Shown one piece after another: positions 4,335-58,250 of a stretch of DNA of 64,000 nucleotides. The stretch covers positions 158-64,157 of the forward strand of contig DATEPP010000139.1 of the NCBI GenBank assembly GCA_035273165.1, written 5' to 3'. The first letter of the stretch is position 1. Each line of letters opens with the position of its first letter. Below the pieces are notes generated by a model. It worked only from the letters and a program-made list of their open reading frames with translations, had not been told where the DNA came from and did not search any database. The stretch is from Gemmatimonadaceae bacterium. Lineage in GTDB: Bacteria; Gemmatimonadota; Gemmatimonadetes; Gemmatimonadales; Gemmatimonadaceae. The position numbers were made by a program, and so were the translations under genes.

Positions 4335-7300
4335 CTAGTGGAAATCGTGGCGCTGGGCGTACTCCGCGCCGACCTCCGCCTTGAGGCCGCGAAACTCCTC
4401 GCCGCGAATGTTGACCACGCCCTGCTCCACCTGCAGCGTTCCACGCACGAGGAGCAAGGGTGTGGTCGAGATCAATAATGCCTGTCGCTCGAATCGCTTC
4501 GGTGTCACGACGACATTCACCGTCCCCGTTTCGTCCTCGAGTGTGAGAAAGACGAATCCCTTGGCCGTGCCTGGCCGCTGCCGGCAGATCACGAGGCCGG
4601 CGCTCGCGATTCGCTCACCGTCCTTTCCGTCCGTCACGAGCTGCCGTGCGGTCCGGACGCCGTTAGGCGCGAGCAGCGGCCGCAGATGCGACATCGGATG
4701 TCCATTGAGCGAGATGCCGGTCATGCGATAGTCTGCTTCGGTCAGCTCGCCCGGCGACATCGTTGGAAGTCCGGCGGTGCGCGCCGCCGTGCCGAGGTCG
4801 CGCCGGCGGCGGGGCGCCAACGGTCCCGCGTCGCCACGCAGCGCGTCGAGCACCTCCCATAACGCCGCGCGCCGCTTGCGGAGATCCGGCTCGTCGGGCA
4901 CGAAGCCATCGAAGGCTCCCGCTTCCGCGAGCTGGCGCAGCGTCCGTTGATCGAAGCGCGTCCGCCGCGCGAAATCCTCGATCGACCCGAACGGTCCCGC
5001 CGCGAGCGCGCCCTCGACGATCTCCTTCGCCTTCGGTCCGAGCCCGCGCACCGATCGCAGGCCGAGCCGGACGGCGGGTGCTCGCGAGCCCTCTGGTTCG
5101 CGCTCGAGCGTCGCATCCCACCGCGAGTGGCGCACGTCCACCGGTCGAACCTTCACGCCATGACGCTTCGCGTCTTCGATCAACGTGCCCGGCGCGTAGA
5201 AGCCCATCGGCTGTGCATTGAGGATCGCCGCCGTGAACTCGGGCGCGTAGTAATGTTTCAGAAACGCTGATGCATAGACGAGCAACGCGAACGACGCCGC
5301 GTGCGATTCCGGAAAGCCATAGTCGGCAAATGCGTTGATCTGATTATAGATCCGAAGCGCCGTTTCCTCGGCGATGCCATTGCTCTTCATTCCGTCGATG
5401 AGCTTTGCACAAATTGCCGCCATCCGCTCGCGGCTCCGCTTGTGCCCCATCGCGCGACGGAGCGTGTCGGCCTCGCCCGCTGAGAACCCGGCGCACGCGA
5501 TCGCCACCTGCATACCCTGCTCCTGGAAGAGCGGCACGCCTAACGTACGTGCCAGGATCGGCTCCAGCGACGGATGTGGATACTCGACCTTCTCTTCGCC
5601 CGCGCGCCGCCGCAGATAGGGATGCACCATGTCGCCCTGGATTGGCCCCGGACGAATGATCGCGACCTCCACGACCAGATCGTAGAAGCACCGCGGCTTG
5701 AGTCGCGGCAGCGTGTTCATCTGCGCGCGACTCTCCACCTGGAAGACGCCAATCGTGTCGGCCCGGCACAGATCCTCGTAGACCGATTGGTCGTCCATGT
5801 CCAGCTGCGCCAGATCCACCGTGATACCGCGTGTCTGCCGCACATACAGCAGGCAATCCTGGATCAACGTCAGCATCCCCAGACCGAGCAGATCGATCTT
5901 CACCAGTCCCACCGGATCGAGATCGTCCTTCTCCCACTGAATCACCGTCCGGTCGGGCATCGACGCTGGCTCGATCGGCACCACCGTCGACAGCGGCTCG
6001 GCCGTGAGCACGAAGCCGCCGACATGGATCGACCGGTGCCGCGGTACCTGATGCAGTCCATCCACGATCTCGGCGAGCGCTCGCACCCGCTTGTCCGCCG
6101 GATCCAACCCCGCGTGCACTAGCGGTGACTGGCGGTCTTCCGCCGATGTCGAGATGGCGGTCGTCGGATTGCGACGCTCGTTATGCGTTTCCTTCGCGTA
6201 CGGATCCATGTACTCGGGCCGCGTCGGTGATTGGTGGCTGGTGGCTGGTGCCTGGTGGAACCGCCGATTCTGTTGCACCGTGTCGTGACCCGTTTCACTT
6301 CCGTAGGGCTCGTACCCGGCGTTAGGCCGCGGCCGATCCGCCGTCGTGAGATGTTTTTTCCCCTTCGGCGCCAATTTCGATCTTTCGCCGTCTCGCGTCC
6401 CGCGTCCCGCGCCCCCCATCCCGCGTGCCGCCTCTTTCACTTCCCGCGACTCCAGCGTCGCCGACGTGCCCGGCATCATCTGCTGCCCGAACGCGCGCGC
6501 GATCACCTCTTCCGCTGACTCATCGCCCTCCTCTCCGGCTGCGCCTAACGAGCCGCCGCGCAGCGCTTCAGCCGTCGCGCGCGCCGAGAACCGGTCACTC
6601 AGCATCGACAGTCGGTCCGCCTGCTCGACGGAAAATCCCAGCACGCGCGCGGCGTCCCGTACCGCCGAGCGGCCCCGGTAGGTGATCTGCTCGCAGACCA
6701 TCGCCGCGTGCTCGCGCCCGTACTTCTCGTAGACGTACTGGATCACCCGCTCGCGCTCACGATGCGCGAAATCGATGTCGATGTCCGGCGCCTCGCGCCG
6801 CTCCTCACTCAGGAACCGCTCGAAGAGCAGTCCGAGACGAATGGGATCCACCGCCGTGATGCCAAGGCAATAGCAGACCGCGGAGTTCGCCGCCGATCCA
6901 CGACCCTGACAGAGAATCCCCTCGCGGCGCGCGAAGCGCACGATGTCCCACACGATGAGGAAGTATCCCGCCAGCCCGAGCCGGCGAATCATTCCCAGCT
7001 CGTGTTCGACCTGCCGGCGATGCGCTTCCGTCGGAAAGACATCCTCGCCTCCGTCGCGCTGCTCCGCTCCCCAGCGTTCCTGTGCCCCCTGGATCACCAG
7101 CCGCTCGAGATACTCGTCGGCGGTCACCTTCGGCGGCAGCGGAAAGGCCGGCAGCGCTGGCTCCAGCTGTTCCATTCGAAAGGCACAGCGTTCGGCGATC
7201 GCCCGCGTCGCGATGATTCCCTCCGGTGCGTGCTGCCAGCGCCGTCGCATCTGCGCCGCGCTCTTGAGATACCACTCACCGTTAGGCCGGAGCCGCGTCC

Positions 7301-8054
7301 CCATTGTATCGAGCGTTTTATCGTGCCGCAGGCACGACAAAACGTCGTGCACGATGCGATCGCGTGCCCGCGCGTAATGCACGTCGTTCGTCACGACCCA
7401 CGGGAGATCGAGCGCGCGCGCGACGTCGATCAGGCCGCGCACCGTCTCGCGCTCTTCCGCAAGTCCGTGATCCCAGCATTCGATGGCCACGCGACCATCG
7501 AATACGTCTTTTATGATCGCCGCCGCTTCACACGCGCCGTCGAGATCTTCGTTCGCCACGAGCGACGGCACCCAGCCGCGGGGGCACCCCGTGAGCGCGA
7601 ACAATCCGCGCGCGTGCCGCGCCACGAGGTCGAGCGACACCGACGGCTCTCCCCGCGGATTGTCCATGCGCGCCCGGGTGATGAGCGTGGAGAGATTTCC
7701 GTATCCCTCGCGCGTTTCGGCGAGGAGAAGCAGATGAGTGGCTGGTGATTGGTGGCTGGTGGCTGGTGGTTGGTCACCAGTCACCAGCCACCGACCACCA
7801 GTCACCGTCAGCTCCGCCCCAATGATCCCTTCGATCCCCACCTCGCGCGTCGCCTGCGCGAACCGCACCGCCCCTCCGAGCTCGTCGTGATCCGTGAGCG
7901 CGAGCGCGGGCAGTCCGAGATCGGCCGCCCGCGCCGCCAGGACTTCCGGCAACGCCGCGCCGTCGAGAAGAGAAAAGCAGGAATGACAGTGCAGCTCGAC
8001 GTAGTCGTTGGCTCGGGCCGATCGCGTCAATCGAACCACCCCTGCACCCACCAT
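4335..8054 (-). CDS. dnaE2: Error-prone DNA polymerase III alpha subunit DnaE2 (ImuC) carrying in-frame repeat insertions
   Basis: PHP motif YVELHCHSCFSLLDGA, polymerase core (GVPLFQEQGMQ, HVGGFVL), C-terminal OB fold. Lies downstream of imuA-imuB. Start ATG 8054 was chosen just after the imuB stop; the longest ORF reaches 8141. Confidence 0.9.
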   Translation of the reverse strand: MVGAGVVRLTRSARANDYVELHCHSCFSLLDGAALPEVLAARAADLGLPALALTDHDELGGAVRFAQATREVGIEGIIGAELTVTGGRWLVTGDQPPATSHQSPATHLLLLAETREGYGNLSTLITRARMDNPRGEPSVSLDLVARHARGLFALTGCPRGWVPSLVANEDLDGACEAAAIIKDVFDGRVAIECWDHGLAEERETVRGLIDVARALDLPWVVTNDVHYARARDRIVHDVLSCLRHDKTLDTMGTRLRPNGEWYLKSAAQMRRRWQHAPEGIIATRAIAERCAFRMEQLEPALPAFPLPPKVTADEYLERLVIQGAQERWGAEQRDGGEDVFPTEAHRRQVEHELGMIRRLGLAGYFLIVWDIVRFARREGILCQGRGSAANSAVCYCLGITAVDPIRLGLLFERFLSEERREAPDIDIDFAHRERERVIQYVYEKYGREHAAMVCEQITYRGRSAVRDAARVLGFSVEQADRLSMLSDRFSARATAEALRGGSLGAAGEEGDESAEEVIARAFGQQMMPGTSATLESREVKEAARGMGGAGRGTRDGERSKLAPKGKKHLTTADRPRPNAGYEPYGSETGHDTVQQNRRFHQAPATSHQSPTRPEYMDPYAKETHNERRNPTTAISTSAEDRQSPLVHAGLDPADKRVRALAEIVDGLHQVPRHRSIHVGGFVLTAEPLSTVVPIEPASMPDRTVIQWEKDDLDPVGLVKIDLLGLGMLTLIQDCLLYVRQTRGITVDLAQLDMDDQSVYEDLCRADTIGVFQVESRAQMNTLPRLKPRCFYDLVVEVAIIRPGPIQGDMVHPYLRRRAGEEKVEYPHPSLEPILARTLGVPLFQEQGMQVAIACAGFSAGEADTLRRAMGHKRSRERMAAICAKLIDGMKSNGIAEETALRIYNQINAFADYGFPESHAASFALLVYASAFLKHYYAPEFTAAILNAQPMGFYAPGTLIEDAKRHGVKVRPVDVRHSRWDATLEREPEGSRAPAVRLGLRSVRGLGPKAKEIVEGALAAGPFGSIEDFARRTRFDQRTLRQLAEAGAFDGFVPDEPDLRKRRAALWEVLDALRGDAGPLAPRRRRDLGTAARTAGLPTMSPGELTEADYRMTGISLNGHPMSHLRPLLAPNGVRTARQLVTDGKDGERIASAGLVICRQRPGTAKGFVFLTLEDETGTVNVVVTPKRFERQALLISTTPLLLVRGTLQVEQGVVNIRGEEFRGLKAEVGAEYAQRHDFH
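6226..6258. repeat. Heptamer array GGTGATT GGTGGCT GGTGGCT GGTGCCT GGTGG inside dnaE2
   Basis: Direct reading. Encodes HQAPATSHQSP on the coding (minus) strand. Confidence 0.85.
6394..6432. repeat. (GCGTCCC)n-type array inside dnaE2, giving a G-quadruplex motif on the coding strand
   Basis: cgcgtcccgcgtcccgcgccccccatcccgcgtgccgcc. The complement carries at least four G3+ tracts. Confidence 0.8.
7738..7806. repeat. Imperfect palindrome of (GGTGGCT)n / (AGCCACC)n heptamers inside dnaE2
   Basis: Left arm gtggctggtgattggtggctggtggctggtggttgg, centre ggtcacc (7772-7778), right arm ccagtcaccagccaccgaccaccagtcacc. In-frame. Confidence 0.85.
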
Positions 8055-9847
8055 TGATCGTCCATCCGATCGAGGTAGAGCACGAAGTCCCCGAACGCAC
8101 TCTCGCAGCGCCAGTAATCGCGCCGATAACCGTCGTCCCACCAGTCGCCGGAGAGCCGCTCCGGCCCGACGGCGCGCTCGATCGTTAGGCGCCGGCCCCG
8201 CCAGGTCACGGTGCGTGGCACGCCGTCGTCGCAGAGGACGAACACCGACTCCGGTGACTCGAGCAGCCGGATGGCGGGGTCGGCGCCCGCGGGCGCCGTC
8301 CCCAGGGCCGTGTTGCTGGAGGAGGACGCCAGCGACGGAGCATCCTCAGCCGCGTCCGCCCACGTCCCCATCCGCTCCGGGACATGCGCGTCGCGCGCCA
8401 CCGGCCTAACGACGACGTTCGGGCCCAGCTCGGCGCGCAGCCGCGCGAGCGCGGCATCGACAGCCGCTCCATCGCGCCACGTCGCGTCCAGCAGCTCGCC
8501 TTGCTCTCCGGAGAGCGGCGCCGCGGCGACGACTGCCACCCCGACTCCGATCGCCGGCGCCGTCAACGACCAGTGGTCGAGCAGAGCGCGGCAGCGCTCG
8601 AACAGGGGAGCGGAGCGGGCCACGGGGCGGGGGAGTCGAATTTCGCGCGTCACTGTGTGCGCCCGCGCGAGCGCGTTCGTCGGCAGCGCTCCGCGGCGGT
8701 CGTCGAGACTGATCGTGATCGACAGCGCCGCCACCGCCTGGCCGCGGCTGGCCAGCTGTGTCGTTAGGCGATCAAGCGCCGCGCGCACGAGAAAGAGAAT
8801 CGGCTCCATCGTCGTCGCCGCCATCGGCAGCTCCGCCTCGACCGCCGGGAAGTCGACGACACGCGCCAGCACCGGCCGCCTGGAATCCTCTCCCCGGGCC
8901 AGACGCCAGGCGCCGAGGCCTTCCTGTCCCCAGCGCCGCTCTACGTCCTCTGCTGACAGCGCGGCGAACGAACCCACGTTGCGTAGCCCGAGCGCCTGCA
9001 GCGCCAGCCGCAGCTCGTCGTCCATCGGCACGAGCGCCAGCGGTGCCGGCGCGAGATACGCCGCGTCGTGGCCATGCGGCACGATGCACACGAGCGACCG
9101 ATCGTCTCCCTGCTGAAAGGACGTTCCCGCCCACGTCGCCGCGCGAGCCGCGACGCACGAATCCGCGATCGCCACGCGCGATCGTGGATGCCAGCGTGCC
9201 GCGATACGCCGAAGCGTGTACGCCAGCTCCCGCTCGCCGCTCCGGCCGCCGAATCCCGACGCGCCGACCCACCACATTCCGGGCACCCCAGCGACCGGCG
9301 TGATCTGAGGGCTCGCCTCGAGCAGGAGCGCGGTCATCTCCGTCGTCGCTGCCGCGACCGCGACGTCATCCCACGGGTACTCGTGCAGCTCGGCGCAGAT
9401 CGCACGCGCCTCGGCGATCGTCATGCCTGCGCGAATGCCGGCTCGCCCCGCCGCTGCCGACACGGCACGCAGCCGTCGTCGCCCCGCGATCGCCTTCGGT
9501 CCGCCGAGCTCCGTCAGGACGATCGGCGCGTCATCCCAATGTCCCGGTAGCGATGGCGCGTTCGTCCAGGGGCCCGAGGTGGGACGGAGTGTGGAGATCG
9601 CCGGCGCCGAATTCGGGCTCGGCGCAGCGGCGCTTCCGGGCGAGAACGCGTCCAGCGCCCCCTGCTTCGTTAGGCGCGCCGGCTCCATGGCCCGGAACGG
9701 GAGCATGAGTTGCACGTCGCTCGCTCCCAGGTCGCCCCGTCTGGCGGCGCGCCACACCGCGCCGATCGGGAACCTCGGGATGCGTACACAGGCGACGCGC
9801 CACTCCAATTGCACAGCTGACCTCCACGGTTCGATGAATGCCTCCAC
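8027..9847 (-). CDS. imuB: ImuB, Y-family-polymerase-like mutasome subunit
   Basis: 606 aa. N-terminal ACVRIPRFPIGAVW is typical of the ImuB/DinB-fold start. Position between imuA and dnaE2. GTG start at 9847. Confidence 0.85.
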   Translation of the reverse strand: MEAFIEPWRSAVQLEWRVACVRIPRFPIGAVWRAARRGDLGASDVQLMLPFRAMEPARLTKQGALDAFSPGSAAAPSPNSAPAISTLRPTSGPWTNAPSLPGHWDDAPIVLTELGGPKAIAGRRRLRAVSAAAGRAGIRAGMTIAEARAICAELHEYPWDDVAVAAATTEMTALLLEASPQITPVAGVPGMWWVGASGFGGRSGERELAYTLRRIAARWHPRSRVAIADSCVAARAATWAGTSFQQGDDRSLVCIVPHGHDAAYLAPAPLALVPMDDELRLALQALGLRNVGSFAALSAEDVERRWGQEGLGAWRLARGEDSRRPVLARVVDFPAVEAELPMAATTMEPILFLVRAALDRLTTQLASRGQAVAALSITISLDDRRGALPTNALARAHTVTREIRLPRPVARSAPLFERCRALLDHWSLTAPAIGVGVAVVAAAPLSGEQGELLDATWRDGAAVDAALARLRAELGPNVVVRPVARDAHVPERMGTWADAAEDAPSLASSSSNTALGTAPAGADPAIRLLESPESVFVLCDDGVPRTVTWRGRRLTIERAVGPERLSGDWWDDGYRRDYWRCESAFGDFVLYLDRMDDQWWVQGWFD

Positions 9848-10517
9848 CCCCTTTCTCCACGACGATGGTCATGCGTCTGGTAGGTGGAGGGTGGTCTCGG
9901 GGCGCAGAGTGCGGGACGCGTGCTGCGGGACGCGGGACGAGGGACGCGGGGAGTCTCGAGTCACGAGGAGTCAGCGCATCCCGCGTCCCGCGTCCCGCGC
10001 CCCGCATTACGCGCAGTCGCACCGCGCCGCCGAGGAGGGAGGTGTGCCCTTCCTCCCCGGCGATGACGAGGGCGGCTCCCGATTCACGCGCGAGCCTCGT
10101 TAGGCGCACCGCCACGGCGCGCGACAACATCGGCCCCGAATCGATCACCACGAGCGCGAACGCACCGCACCGCAACAACACGTCGGCACACCACGCCGCG
10201 CGCGAAGGGTCGCGCGGCCGGATCATCCATAATCCTTCGCTGCCGAGATGCGCCCAGTCGCGCGGCGCGAGCGTACGTGTCGCGTCGATGTACGCCACCC
10301 ACCCCGCTGCGTCCAGCGTGCGTGCGACGATCTGACGCAGCAGCGTCGCTTTGCCACTCCCGCGCGCGCCGACAACCTCCGTCAGTCGCCCACGTGGCAA
10401 ACCTCCACCCACCAGCCGCGCATCTAGTGCTTCCACCCCTGTCGGCAGGGCGCTTCCCTCGACACTGGGTGCGGAGAGAGGGTGGGGGAGGAGGTCGACG
10501 AGAGACTGTGGAAGCAT
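9531..10517 (-). CDS. imuA: ImuA (RecA/SulA-like mutasome subunit) with in-frame repeat insertion and a long C-terminal overlap of imuB
   Basis: Walker-A-like GARGSGKATLL and RecA-fold pattern. ATG 10517 was preferred over TTG 10595. The frame only stops at 9531, 316 nt inside imuB. Confidence 0.7.
   Translation of the reverse strand: MLPQSLVDLLPHPLSAPSVEGSALPTGVEALDARLVGGGLPRGRLTEVVGARGSGKATLLRQIVARTLDAAGWVAYIDATRTLAPRDWAHLGSEGLWMIRPRDPSRAAWCADVLLRCGAFALVVIDSGPMLSRAVAVRLTRLARESGAALVIAGEEGHTSLLGGAVRLRVMRGAGRGTRDALTPRDSRLPASLVPRPAARVPHSAPRDHPPPTRRMTIVVEKGGGGIHRTVEVSCAIGVARRLCTHPEVPDRRGVARRQTGRPGSERRATHAPVPGHGAGAPNEAGGAGRVLARKRRCAEPEFGAGDLHTPSHLGPLDERAIATGTLG
9911..10005. repeat. Inverted (GGGACGC)n / (GCGTCCC)n heptamer arrays inside imuA, with G4 motifs on both strands
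   Basis: 9927-9951 reads GGGacgcGGGacgaGGGacgcGGGG. 9978-10005 reads atcccgcgtcccgcgtcccgcgccccgc. In-frame in imuA. Confidence 0.85.
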
Positions 10518-10589
10518 CGGAGTTTGGTCGGGAATCACTCCCGCGACCGCCGAGACTGCCGCGACGCGAAGGGGCGAATAAGCTATCCC

Positions 10590-10604
10590 GAACAAAAACC
10601 GAAA
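10590..10604. promoter_or_regulatory. Candidate LexA (SOS) box, GAAC-N7-GAAA
   Basis: gaacaaaaaccgaaa lies in the imuA/yggL divergent region and resembles the alphaproteobacterial GTTC-N7-GTTC direct-repeat box. The LexA motif of this lineage is unknown to me. Confidence 0.2.
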
Positions 10605-27557: not shown

Positions 27558-27572
27558 CGTTAGGCGGCGCTC

Positions 27573-27692
27573 GCTGGTGGCTGGTGGCTGGTGGCTGGTG
27601 GCTGGTGACTGGTGGTGAGTGACGGGTGGCGAGTGGCGAGTGAATTCGGAACGAAGCGTTTTCTTACCTAGCACCTAGCACCTAGCACCTGG
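27573..27692. repeat. Composite heptamer-repeat element: (GCTGGTG)x5-7, (GTGGCGA)x2, (CACCTAG)x3-4
   Basis: Direct reading gives 5 perfect GCTGGTG units at 27573-27607 plus degenerate units, gtggcgagtggcga at 27627-27640, and tacctag/cacctag/cacctag/cacctgg at 27665-27692. Lies between convergent genes. Confidence 0.85.
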
Positions 27693-57557: not shown

Positions 57558-58250
57558 TTAGTGAGACGAGCTGCTCGATCCGCCCGAGCCGCTGGAACCG
57601 CGCGAGCCACTCGAACCACCGCTCGACCCACCGGAGCCCGACGAGCCGGAGGAGCCGCTCGAGCCACCCATACCACCGGACGATCCACTCGATCCGCTCG
57701 AGCCACCCATCCCGCCGCTGGATCCACTCGAGCCCTTCTGCCCACTCTGCCCGCTCTGCCCGCTCTGCCCACTCTGCCCACTCTGGCCGCTCTGGCCGCT
57801 CTGACCACTCTGGCCGGAGCTCGAGCCGGATTTCGATGAGCCGGAGGAACCGGACGAGCCGGACGAGCCGCTGGCGCCGAAGCCGGAGGAGCCGCTTCCG
57901 CTCGACGAGCCGCTGCCTGAGGAGCCATAGCTGCCCGACGAGCCGCTGCCACTGCGACCACTCGTCTGACTGCTGCCGAGCTCCGGATCCGTCATGTCAC
58001 CGTCGCCCTGACGGCCCCGGGTCGCCGAGCTGCCGATGCCCTCGTCACCCTGATTGCCGCGATCCGTGCGGCTCTGCGAGCTGCTGCTGCTGCTGCCCGA
58101 CTGCTGCCCGAAGCCGCCACTCGAACCGCTCGAGCCTGCATTGCGTCCCGAGGTGCCGCTTCCGCTGCTGCCGGACATCGAGTCACTATCAGAACTGCCT
58201 GACGAGCCACTCGAGCCACTCTTGTTGAGATCGTCCTTGCGGTCAGCCAT
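57558..58250 (-). CDS. Ser/Gly-rich intrinsically disordered protein
   Basis: ATG 58250 lies 9 nt downstream of GGAGG. The 230 aa are almost entirely S/G with an (SGQ)n block. Coding status rests on the RBS and ORF length only. Confidence 0.5.
   Translation of the reverse strand: MADRKDDLNKSGSSGSSGSSDSDSMSGSSGSGTSGRNAGSSGSSGGFGQQSGSSSSSSQSRTDRGNQGDEGIGSSATRGRQGDGDMTDPELGSSQTSGRSGSGSSGSYGSSGSGSSSGSGSSGFGASGSSGSSGSSGSSKSGSSSGQSGQSGQSGQSGQSGQSGQSGQSGQKGSSGSSGGMGGSSGSSGSSGGMGGSSGSSGSSGSGGSSGGSSGSRGSSGSGGSSSSSH
57738..57815. repeat. 9-bp tandem repeat (CTGSCCRCT)x8.7 encoding (SGQ)n
   Basis: Direct reading: ctgcccact ctgcccgct ctgcccgct ctgcccact ctgcccact ctggccgct ctggccgct ctgaccact ctggcc. 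Confidence 0.9.

Follow-up and report, generated by a model that had tools for sequence, protein, structure and literature searches.

The 64,000-nucleotide (nt) stretch analysed here, called the window below, covers positions 158 to 64,157 of contig DATEPP010000139.1 (assembly GCA_035273165.1) of a Gemmatimonadaceae bacterium, has a G+C content of 65.8% and carries an operon in which dnaE2 lies downstream of imuA and imuB (Table 1). Our subject is a long in-frame insertion in dnaE2 and the two heptanucleotide arrays within it, which an earlier note, made from the letters alone, had read as a domesticated repeat element or as a regulatory G-quadruplex (G4) in the transcript; its observations prove largely right and its interpretation mostly wrong. 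The ImuA-ImuB-DnaE2 mutasome is reported to carry out SOS-inducible error-prone replication (Galhardo 2005, Erill 2006, Warner 2010), and the genes of the window resemble it in their order, which is also that of two related loci (L002 and L005), in the profile match of DnaE2 and in the intact active site of the polymerase. DnaE2 scores 1268.5 bits against NCBIfam model NF004225 ('error-prone DNA polymerase', cut-off 939), with the match in two stretches, and the DnaE1 equivalog models score under their own cut-offs on the same protein. Its Pfam domains are PHP, DNA_pol3_alpha (split into two stretches), finger, HHH_6 and OB, and the catalytic aspartates in PDIDID and KIDLLG, on either side of the insertion, are invariant in 78 aligned sequences. 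To judge by its sequence, the open reading frame (ORF) encodes a DnaE2-type error-prone polymerase with an intact active site; it stays open over the 1240-1270 amino acids (aa) that the earlier note had estimated, and its true start probably lies about 30 codons downstream of the GTG. The closest relatives come from soil metagenomes, and the closest database homologs are named Gemmatimonadaceae.

Table 1. Features of the imuA-imuB-dnaE2 operon and of one further repeat locus (positions in the window)
Feature	Position	Strand	Description
dnaE2 (error-prone Pol III alpha-like polymerase)	4335..8141	-	single ORF, 1268 codons, GTG start
Lineage-specific thumb-domain insertion	~6114..6599	-	residues 515-676, 162 aa vs 22 in Taq Pol III alpha
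Conserved island 1	6456..6512	-	EEVIARAFGQQMMPGTSAT; consensus EEVIARAFGQQMxPGT; predicted helix 543-552
Spot-1 heptamer array	6389..6431	-	sense CGCGGGA (+ strand CGTCCCG), ~6 imperfect copies, residues 571-585 (AARGMGGAGRGTRDG)
Four-tract G4 motif	6399..6422	- (sense, non-template)	GGGATGGGGGGCGCGGGACGCGGG; regular expression G3+N1-7; within spot-1 array
Conserved module between the two arrays	6261..6377	-	KLAPKGKKHLTTADRPRPNAGYEPYGSETGHDTVQQNRR; consensus KLAPxGKKxLTxADRPRPNAGYEPYGS; includes octamer CGTTAGGC at 6320-6327
Spot-2 heptamer array	6226..6258	-	sense CACCAGC (+ strand GGTGRYT), ~5 units, residues 628-639 (FHQAPATSHQSP)
Conserved island 3	6153..6215	-	EYMDPYAKETHNERRNPTTAI; consensus YMDPYAKETHNERRNPTTA
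Third dnaE2 repeat site, PHP domain	7738..7810	-	inverted GGTGRYT x5 / AGYCACC x5, in frame, residues 111-135 (WLVTGDQPPATSHQSPAT)
imuB-like Y-family polymerase homolog	8027..9847	-	IMS and IMS_C domains; mechanical ORF, 606 aa
imuA-like RecA-fold protein	9531..10595	-	ImuA_translesion 62 bits (below cut-off 150); RecA N-terminal fold
Inverted GCGGGAC/GTCCCGC array pair in imuA	9911..10005	-	hairpin, in frame, C-terminal linker; G4 motifs on both strands
Sole heptamer-array locus outside the operon	27573..27690	+	(GCTGGTG)6, (GTGGCGA)4, (ACCTAGC)3.6; apparently intergenic

What sets this protein apart from other DnaE2 is its thumb insertion, of which neither the NCBIfam DnaE2 profile nor the solved structures of the DNA polymerase III (Pol III) alpha subunit have a counterpart. 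Alignment with Taq Pol III alpha (2hpi, 3e0d) pairs query residue 514 with chain residue 524 and query residue 677 with chain residue 547, which leaves the query about 140 aa longer and bears out the claim of at least 100 aa in a linker that far exceeds its counterparts elsewhere among DnaE2 and Pol III alpha proteins. E. coli alpha aligns with the query up to its residue 463, and the insertion is placed in the thumb because this residue falls inside the boundaries of that domain, which are reportedly residues 433-510 (Lamers 2006). The profiles break at the same place: NF004225 has no match for about residues 515-663 and its best listed stretch starts at residue 664, related Pol III alpha models end at about residue 514, and it is here that the Pfam DNA_pol3_alpha domain is split.

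The inserted sequence had been described as low-complexity; a different picture comes from aligning the query with 120 DnaE2 homologs (66-93% identical; n = 121). The segment from LSDRFS to GLHQ varies from 73 to 226 aa around a median of 158 (185 in the query) and contains three strongly conserved islands, whose sequences include RPRPNAGYEPYGS and YMDPYAKETHNERRNPTTA. A motif of the NERRNPTT type in island 3 is found in 113 of the 121 homologs, and the RPxPxAxYEPxG core of the module between the arrays in 99. Ratios of nonsynonymous to synonymous substitution (dN/dS), calculated between the window and five relatives, are 0.04-0.08 in the islands at dS 0.43-0.73, compared with 0.02-0.05 in the polymerase core, and the three islands appear to be under purifying selection. 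Even the most distant homologs sampled contain the inter-array module, which is gone only in a scatter of others (P0028/29/38, P0030, P0037, P0042 and P0048), where the deletion extends between the two variable spots that hold the arrays in the query. Because this module is the most widely conserved part of the insertion, homologs of 66-72% identity included, it is best regarded as ancestral and its absences as deletions.

An AlphaFold2 model of residues 330-760, built from 78 sequences, gives block-mean pLDDT (predicted local distance difference test) values of 39-63 over the insertion with a few short helices, consistent with a flexible loop bearing short conserved motifs and presumably exposed at the surface. 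An exhaustive HMMER search with the insert alone against 1.84 billion representative proteins returned only seven short fragments, and the insert sequence is therefore no widespread domain or dispersed element; a word-index search with the insert alone found just three short proteins and so gave no taxonomic range, its pre-filter having evidently missed the full-length homologs. As far as the alignments go, the insertion is old, conserved and specific to the Gemmatimonadaceae, with three short islands set on flexible linkers, and with motifs of its own it is possibly a partner-binding module.

The two heptamer arrays had been said to bracket the insertion. Both in fact lie inside it and flank only the conserved module of about 40 aa, at positions close to those first given (6226-6258 and 6394-6432): Tandem Repeats Finder (TRF) reports a period of 7 at 6389-6431 (spot 1; 6.1 copies, 77% matches) and at 6232-6258 (spot 2; 3.9 copies, 90% matches). 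Two consecutive GGTGRYT units match 16 times in the window against 0.11 expected, and the two-unit GCGTCCC pattern 7 times against 0.35, counts that none of 100 shuffles reached. The arrays account for about 27 of the extra residues. Over their stretches, only 0-10% identity to the query remains and gaps occur in 40-80% of the homologs (70-80% at spot 1); the arrays therefore occupy two indel-prone linkers between the islands. As a 7-nt unit is not a whole number of codons, successive units are read in each of the three frames by turns, giving peptides with a 7-aa period (AGRGTRD and HQSPATS), and shared units yield shared peptides elsewhere in the operon, both in the PHP domain (PPATSHQSPAT) and in ImuA (GAGRGTRD). 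An inverted partner was looked for at both arrays and none was found, and their predicted RNA folds are ordinary against shuffles (z-scores of -1.6 and -1.0).

Comparison of seven orthologous dnaE2 genes (the window and loci L001-L006) gives the two arrays different histories. When the DNA of spot 1 is cut into 7-mers from the conserved REVK codons, the arrays share a register. The unit is CGCGGGA in the window, L001 and L003; in L002 it is CGCGTGA or CGCGTGG, one substitution away across the units; L004 and L006 carry GGCGAGT/GTGGCGA, L005 carries a decayed mixture, and spot-1 lengths range from 24 to 81 nt. Such a pattern bears the signature of an old array under slippage-driven concerted evolution. 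The array at spot 2 is confined to the window, L001 and L003, and short non-repetitive sequence stands there in L002, L004 and L006. By hand count it has 5 units in the window and 11 in L001 and L003 (TRF: 3.9, 9.6 and 10.4 copies), and the length difference of 39 nt corresponds to 6 units (42 nt, which preserves the frame) together with a 3-nt indel. The presence or absence of one array is independent of that of the other between lineages. The earlier note had itself named relatives of the same linker length with non-repetitive sequence as evidence against its proposal, and L002, L004 and L006 are such relatives, without a spot-2 array at similar lengths.

Heptamer arrays are not restricted to these two spots. 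The units recur at five loci in the window, with no common flanks or loops seen, and two further sites of the operon hold inverted pairs in frame. The pair in the PHP domain of dnaE2 has a predicted RNA fold of -54.8 kcal/mol (z -6.6), and that in imuA one of -71.1 kcal/mol (z -7.6). The PHP-site hairpin is built from GGTGGCT units in the window and L001, GCGTGGC in L005 and GTGGCGA in L006, its arms complementary throughout; L002 has a GGGCAGA/GCCCACA pair and a further locus, L126, units of the CCCCACG type. In L003, whose protein is 92% identical, the site consists only of GAGTG-G-CACTC and is effectively empty. Turnover at the PHP site is thus very fast, because relatives of 85-93% protein identity hold different hairpins, an unrelated palindrome or almost nothing. 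The unrelated palindrome, at 10220-10310 of L004, is perfect, is not made of heptamers (CATCCCGAGCGAAACGAGGGATCTGC ... GCAGATCCCTCGCTTCGCTCGGGATG) and is inserted in frame; it resembles REP-like (repetitive extragenic palindromic) sequences of soil bacteria, and no further copies of it were found in the window or in the 126 loci compared. Across the window and six related loci, arrays of at least three heptamers number 17 sites in 41.9 kb of operon against 4 sites in 138 kb of flanking DNA, an approximately 14-fold enrichment. In the window alone the operon holds four of the five array sites (p = 4e-4, a post hoc value for sites that are orthologous and non-independent between loci).

Rickettsia palindromic elements (RPE) are reportedly inserted in frame in protein-coding genes (Ogata et al. 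2000), and they offer a parallel to the repeat DNA described here: in-frame repeats are tolerated in essential or conserved genes, where they encode surface-loop peptides, and their presence or absence differs between close relatives. The best fit is with the hairpins of the PHP site and of imuA. Unlike RPE, which are 100-150 bp long with a conserved family sequence, the repeats of the window are short arrays of 7-nt units that share no conserved element sequence, and the spot-1 and spot-2 arrays are not palindromic.

A closer precedent is provided by long heptanucleotide simple sequence repeats (SSRs). As summarised in PMC4679880 and PMC4692102, Mrazek 2007 found heptanucleotide repeats to be the most abundant class of long SSR in the majority of prokaryotic genomes, above all in those of large size and high GC content, with multiple-of-three units predominating in ORFs; polymerase slippage is the origin proposed for the long heptanucleotide SSRs. 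Such repeats (Mrazek, Guo and Shah 2007; the cyanobacterial short tandemly repeated repetitive sequences, STRR; TAACTGA of Beggiatoaceae, PMC4679880) resemble those of the window in consisting of a few to tens of tandem units; varied units stand side by side, often as inverted pairs, both copy number and unit sequence vary among close relatives, and the hosts are typically free-living with large, high-GC genomes. The difference is one of location: the known repeats are mainly intergenic and reportedly depleted in ORFs, and here four in-frame coding sites lie in one operon. A scan for (GGTGRCT)3 with one genome per species gave more than 119 stretches from many phyla among the matches listed, often with several heptamer arrays within 8 kb and some of them in inverted pairs. 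A literature search combining 'Gemmatimonadetes' with 'heptanucleotide' returned no paper linking such repeats to Gemmatimonadota. The arrays of the window belong to this known and widespread SSR class, and it is their in-frame residence in coding sequence that is unusual.

On this evidence we consider it likely that the arrays are ordinary heptanucleotide SSRs lodged in two variable linkers of a conserved DnaE2 thumb insertion, and that the G4 motif is incidental. Heptamer arrays at the two spots would lengthen, shorten and homogenise in place through replication slippage, as in concerted evolution; only variants free of stops and keeping the frame would survive; and unit turnover would both make and remove G-tracts, with the G4 motif itself left unmaintained. 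Slippage would thus be the mechanism, and the arrays would be close to neutral at the protein level, of little consequence given their place in a flexible surface loop. Of the earlier proposal of a domesticated repeat insertion, what stands is that repeat DNA has been accommodated in frame in coding sequence; it did not bring in 100 aa or more. Several points weigh against our reading. Neutral slippage alone does not explain the 14-fold enrichment in the operon, and four in-ORF sites in a single operon are unusual because heptamer SSRs are reported to be under-represented in ORFs (PMC4692102; Mrazek 2007 as summarised elsewhere). The unrelated palindrome at the PHP site in one lineage, along with the empty site in a close relative, suggests insertion or replacement besides slippage in place. 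The dN of the islands is biased downward because they were picked for being conserved, and the disorder of the insertion, as predicted, comes from a model of a fragment.

The best-surviving alternative, though we still regard it as unlikely, is that the arrays and hairpins of the operon, both spot arrays included, are selected cis-acting structures that hold basal expression of the mutagenic polymerase low; mRNA hairpins, RNase targets and replication or transcription pause sites would be candidates. The very stable folds predicted in the PHP region of dnaE2 and in imuA speak for it, as does the enrichment of the operon in arrays, and so do the PHP-site arms, which stay complementary despite the change of unit. 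Selection for structure is one possible source of this complementarity; just as possible are the repeats' mode of origin, from which palindromy may follow unselected, and very tolerant loops in rarely expressed genes. The spot-1 and spot-2 arrays are single, with neither partner nor unusual fold, and the PHP site is empty in L003. Rfam gives only sub-threshold matches to miRNA precursors on the two hairpins and none within 6100-6560, and a promoter and terminator scan of the region yielded nothing meaningful.

Somewhat less probable, in our estimate, is that the arrays and hairpins are no random passengers and are concentrated in the operon because they act on its mutasome. As modules prone to slippage or to forming structure, they might restrain the error-prone polymerase or turn its expression on and off; or else they could be footprints of template slippage by the mutasome on its own highly induced operon.

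A G4 formed by the spot-1 array, either in the RNA or in the non-template DNA strand, and regulating translation or transcription of the mutasome polymerase, was one of the two possibilities raised in the earlier note, and we find it very unlikely. The motif exists as claimed, the sense strand at 6399-6422 reading GGGAUGGGGGGCGCGGGACGCGGG, and is of a rare type: with both strands counted, the window has six four-tract G3+N1-7 motifs where a first-order Markov model predicts 1.39. Of these six, however, three are no more than GCGGGAC arrays and a fourth is an array of 9-mers, and at spot 1 the motif is automatic because the array repeats a GGG-containing unit at least four times. The orthologous arrays of L002, L004, L005 and L006 lack four G-tracts, and a G4-type peptide is found in only 7 of the 121 homologs. 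Folding with the G-quadruplex energies of ViennaRNA, a thermodynamic model that ignores co-transcriptional folding, predicts a competitive G4 in an isolated RNA of 66-131 nt (78-90% of the ensemble) but gives it about 1% with 231-401 nt of context. A related case is known from Xanthomonas and Nostoc, whose G-rich heptamers (GGGAATC and GGGGA(C/T)T) likewise carry one G-tract per unit, so that four units make a G4 motif, and whose inverted copies, like those of the window, can form stem-loops instead; these GGGNATC-related heptamers form G4 in vitro, are under-represented within ORFs on the coding strand and have no function found, regulatory or other (Rehm et al. 2015, PMC4692102). Unlike them, the unit of the window is GGGACGC and lies on the coding strand within an ORF, with the G-tract lost in sister orthologs. 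In vitro G4 formation by a spot-1 oligonucleotide is plausible; a selected, conserved G4 regulator at spot 1 is unlikely.

SSR contingency loci bring about phase variation through repeats that shift the reading frame. Arrays of the operon could act in this way, the gain or loss of a single unit reversibly switching DnaE2 or ImuA and hence inducible mutagenesis, and the 7-nt unit within ORFs, the four enriched sites in one operon and the copy numbers that vary among close relatives fit the idea, which we rate slightly lower still than the G4. Unlike those of contingency loci, the genes concerned have no surface or host-interaction role, and no out-of-frame allele was seen: the seven dnaE2 genes, imuA in six loci and the 120 homologous proteins are all in frame, which is a weak test because intact ORFs are favoured in the protein database. 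The arrays are also short (4-6 units) and imperfect (77-90% matches), hence expected to slip at lower rates. Two N-terminally truncated homologs (P0021 and P0047), considered as phase-OFF alleles, turned out to be contig-end artefacts, the contig of P0021 ending inside the PHP-site repeat.

The least probable explanation is a mobile bipartite repeat element, inserted and domesticated with the arrays as its ends and the 100 or more residues as its cargo: the arrays do flank a module that some homologs lack, and palindromic or repeat inserts do come and go at the PHP site, but that module is the most widely conserved part of the insertion, with absences that are deletions, GGTGRYT-type and GCGTCCC-type units stand close together nowhere else in the window, the two arrays vary independently (and therefore form no bipartite element), and the exhaustive search with the insert gave only the seven short fragments.

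If the arrays are indeed SSRs in variable linkers, then heptanucleotide repeats, usually deemed intergenic, can persist for a long time inside an important gene, read in all three frames and evolving in concert within flexible loops, and G4 motif calls in GC-rich genomes warrant caution. The conserved thumb insertion and the concentration of arrays and hairpins in the operon may turn out more valuable than what was first claimed. There are consequences for annotation as well, in that imuA was missed by gene callers in three relatives and assemblies break at the repeats. The metagenome contig of L126 starts within its CCCCACG-type PHP-site array, and that of L127 some 95 nt ahead of a gene call that is truncated; for L126 at least, the assembly is broken by the array, and a truncated protein entry in the database is the result.

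As for the neighbouring genes, the mechanical ImuB ORF overlaps that of ImuA by about 316 nt. Since the ImuB calls of L002, L004, L005 and L006 are 466-474 aa long, imuB of the window probably starts near 9440, although the call in L003 has 597 aa. In all six loci containing imuA (the window and five relatives) the gene is a single in-frame tblastn high-scoring segment pair; pseudogenisation in L003, L004 and L006, where it is uncalled, was considered and rejected on this ground. The array locus outside the operon is preceded by the octamer CGTTAGGC at 27558, and its GTGGCGA unit is also found in dnaE2 of L004 and L006.

The copy of this octamer at 6320 had been singled out as lying between the two arrays. 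It is present there, but as a mark of the insert it is ruled out, CGTTAGGC being a hyper-abundant genome-wide word. Though not palindromic, it occurs 39 times in the window (19 on the plus and 20 on the minus strand) against about one in shuffles, its positions including 6320-6327(+), 6543-6550(-) and 27558-27565(+). Its density in L001-L006 and L126 (0.55-1.18 per kb) is like that of the window, and it is absent or nearly so from two other Gemmatimonadetes loci and from 814 kb of other phyla. Another word, CGAGATCG, is over-represented to the same degree, also with 39 occurrences. The two could be uptake-sequence-like, Chi- or KOPS-like, or the footprint of restriction or methylation.

Finally, dense tandem repeats of 9, 18, 27, 39 and 57 nt fill positions 57567-57950, among them (TCTGCCCAC)8.4, which gives a minus-strand G4 motif at 57733-57779; the block is probably a repetitive coding region.

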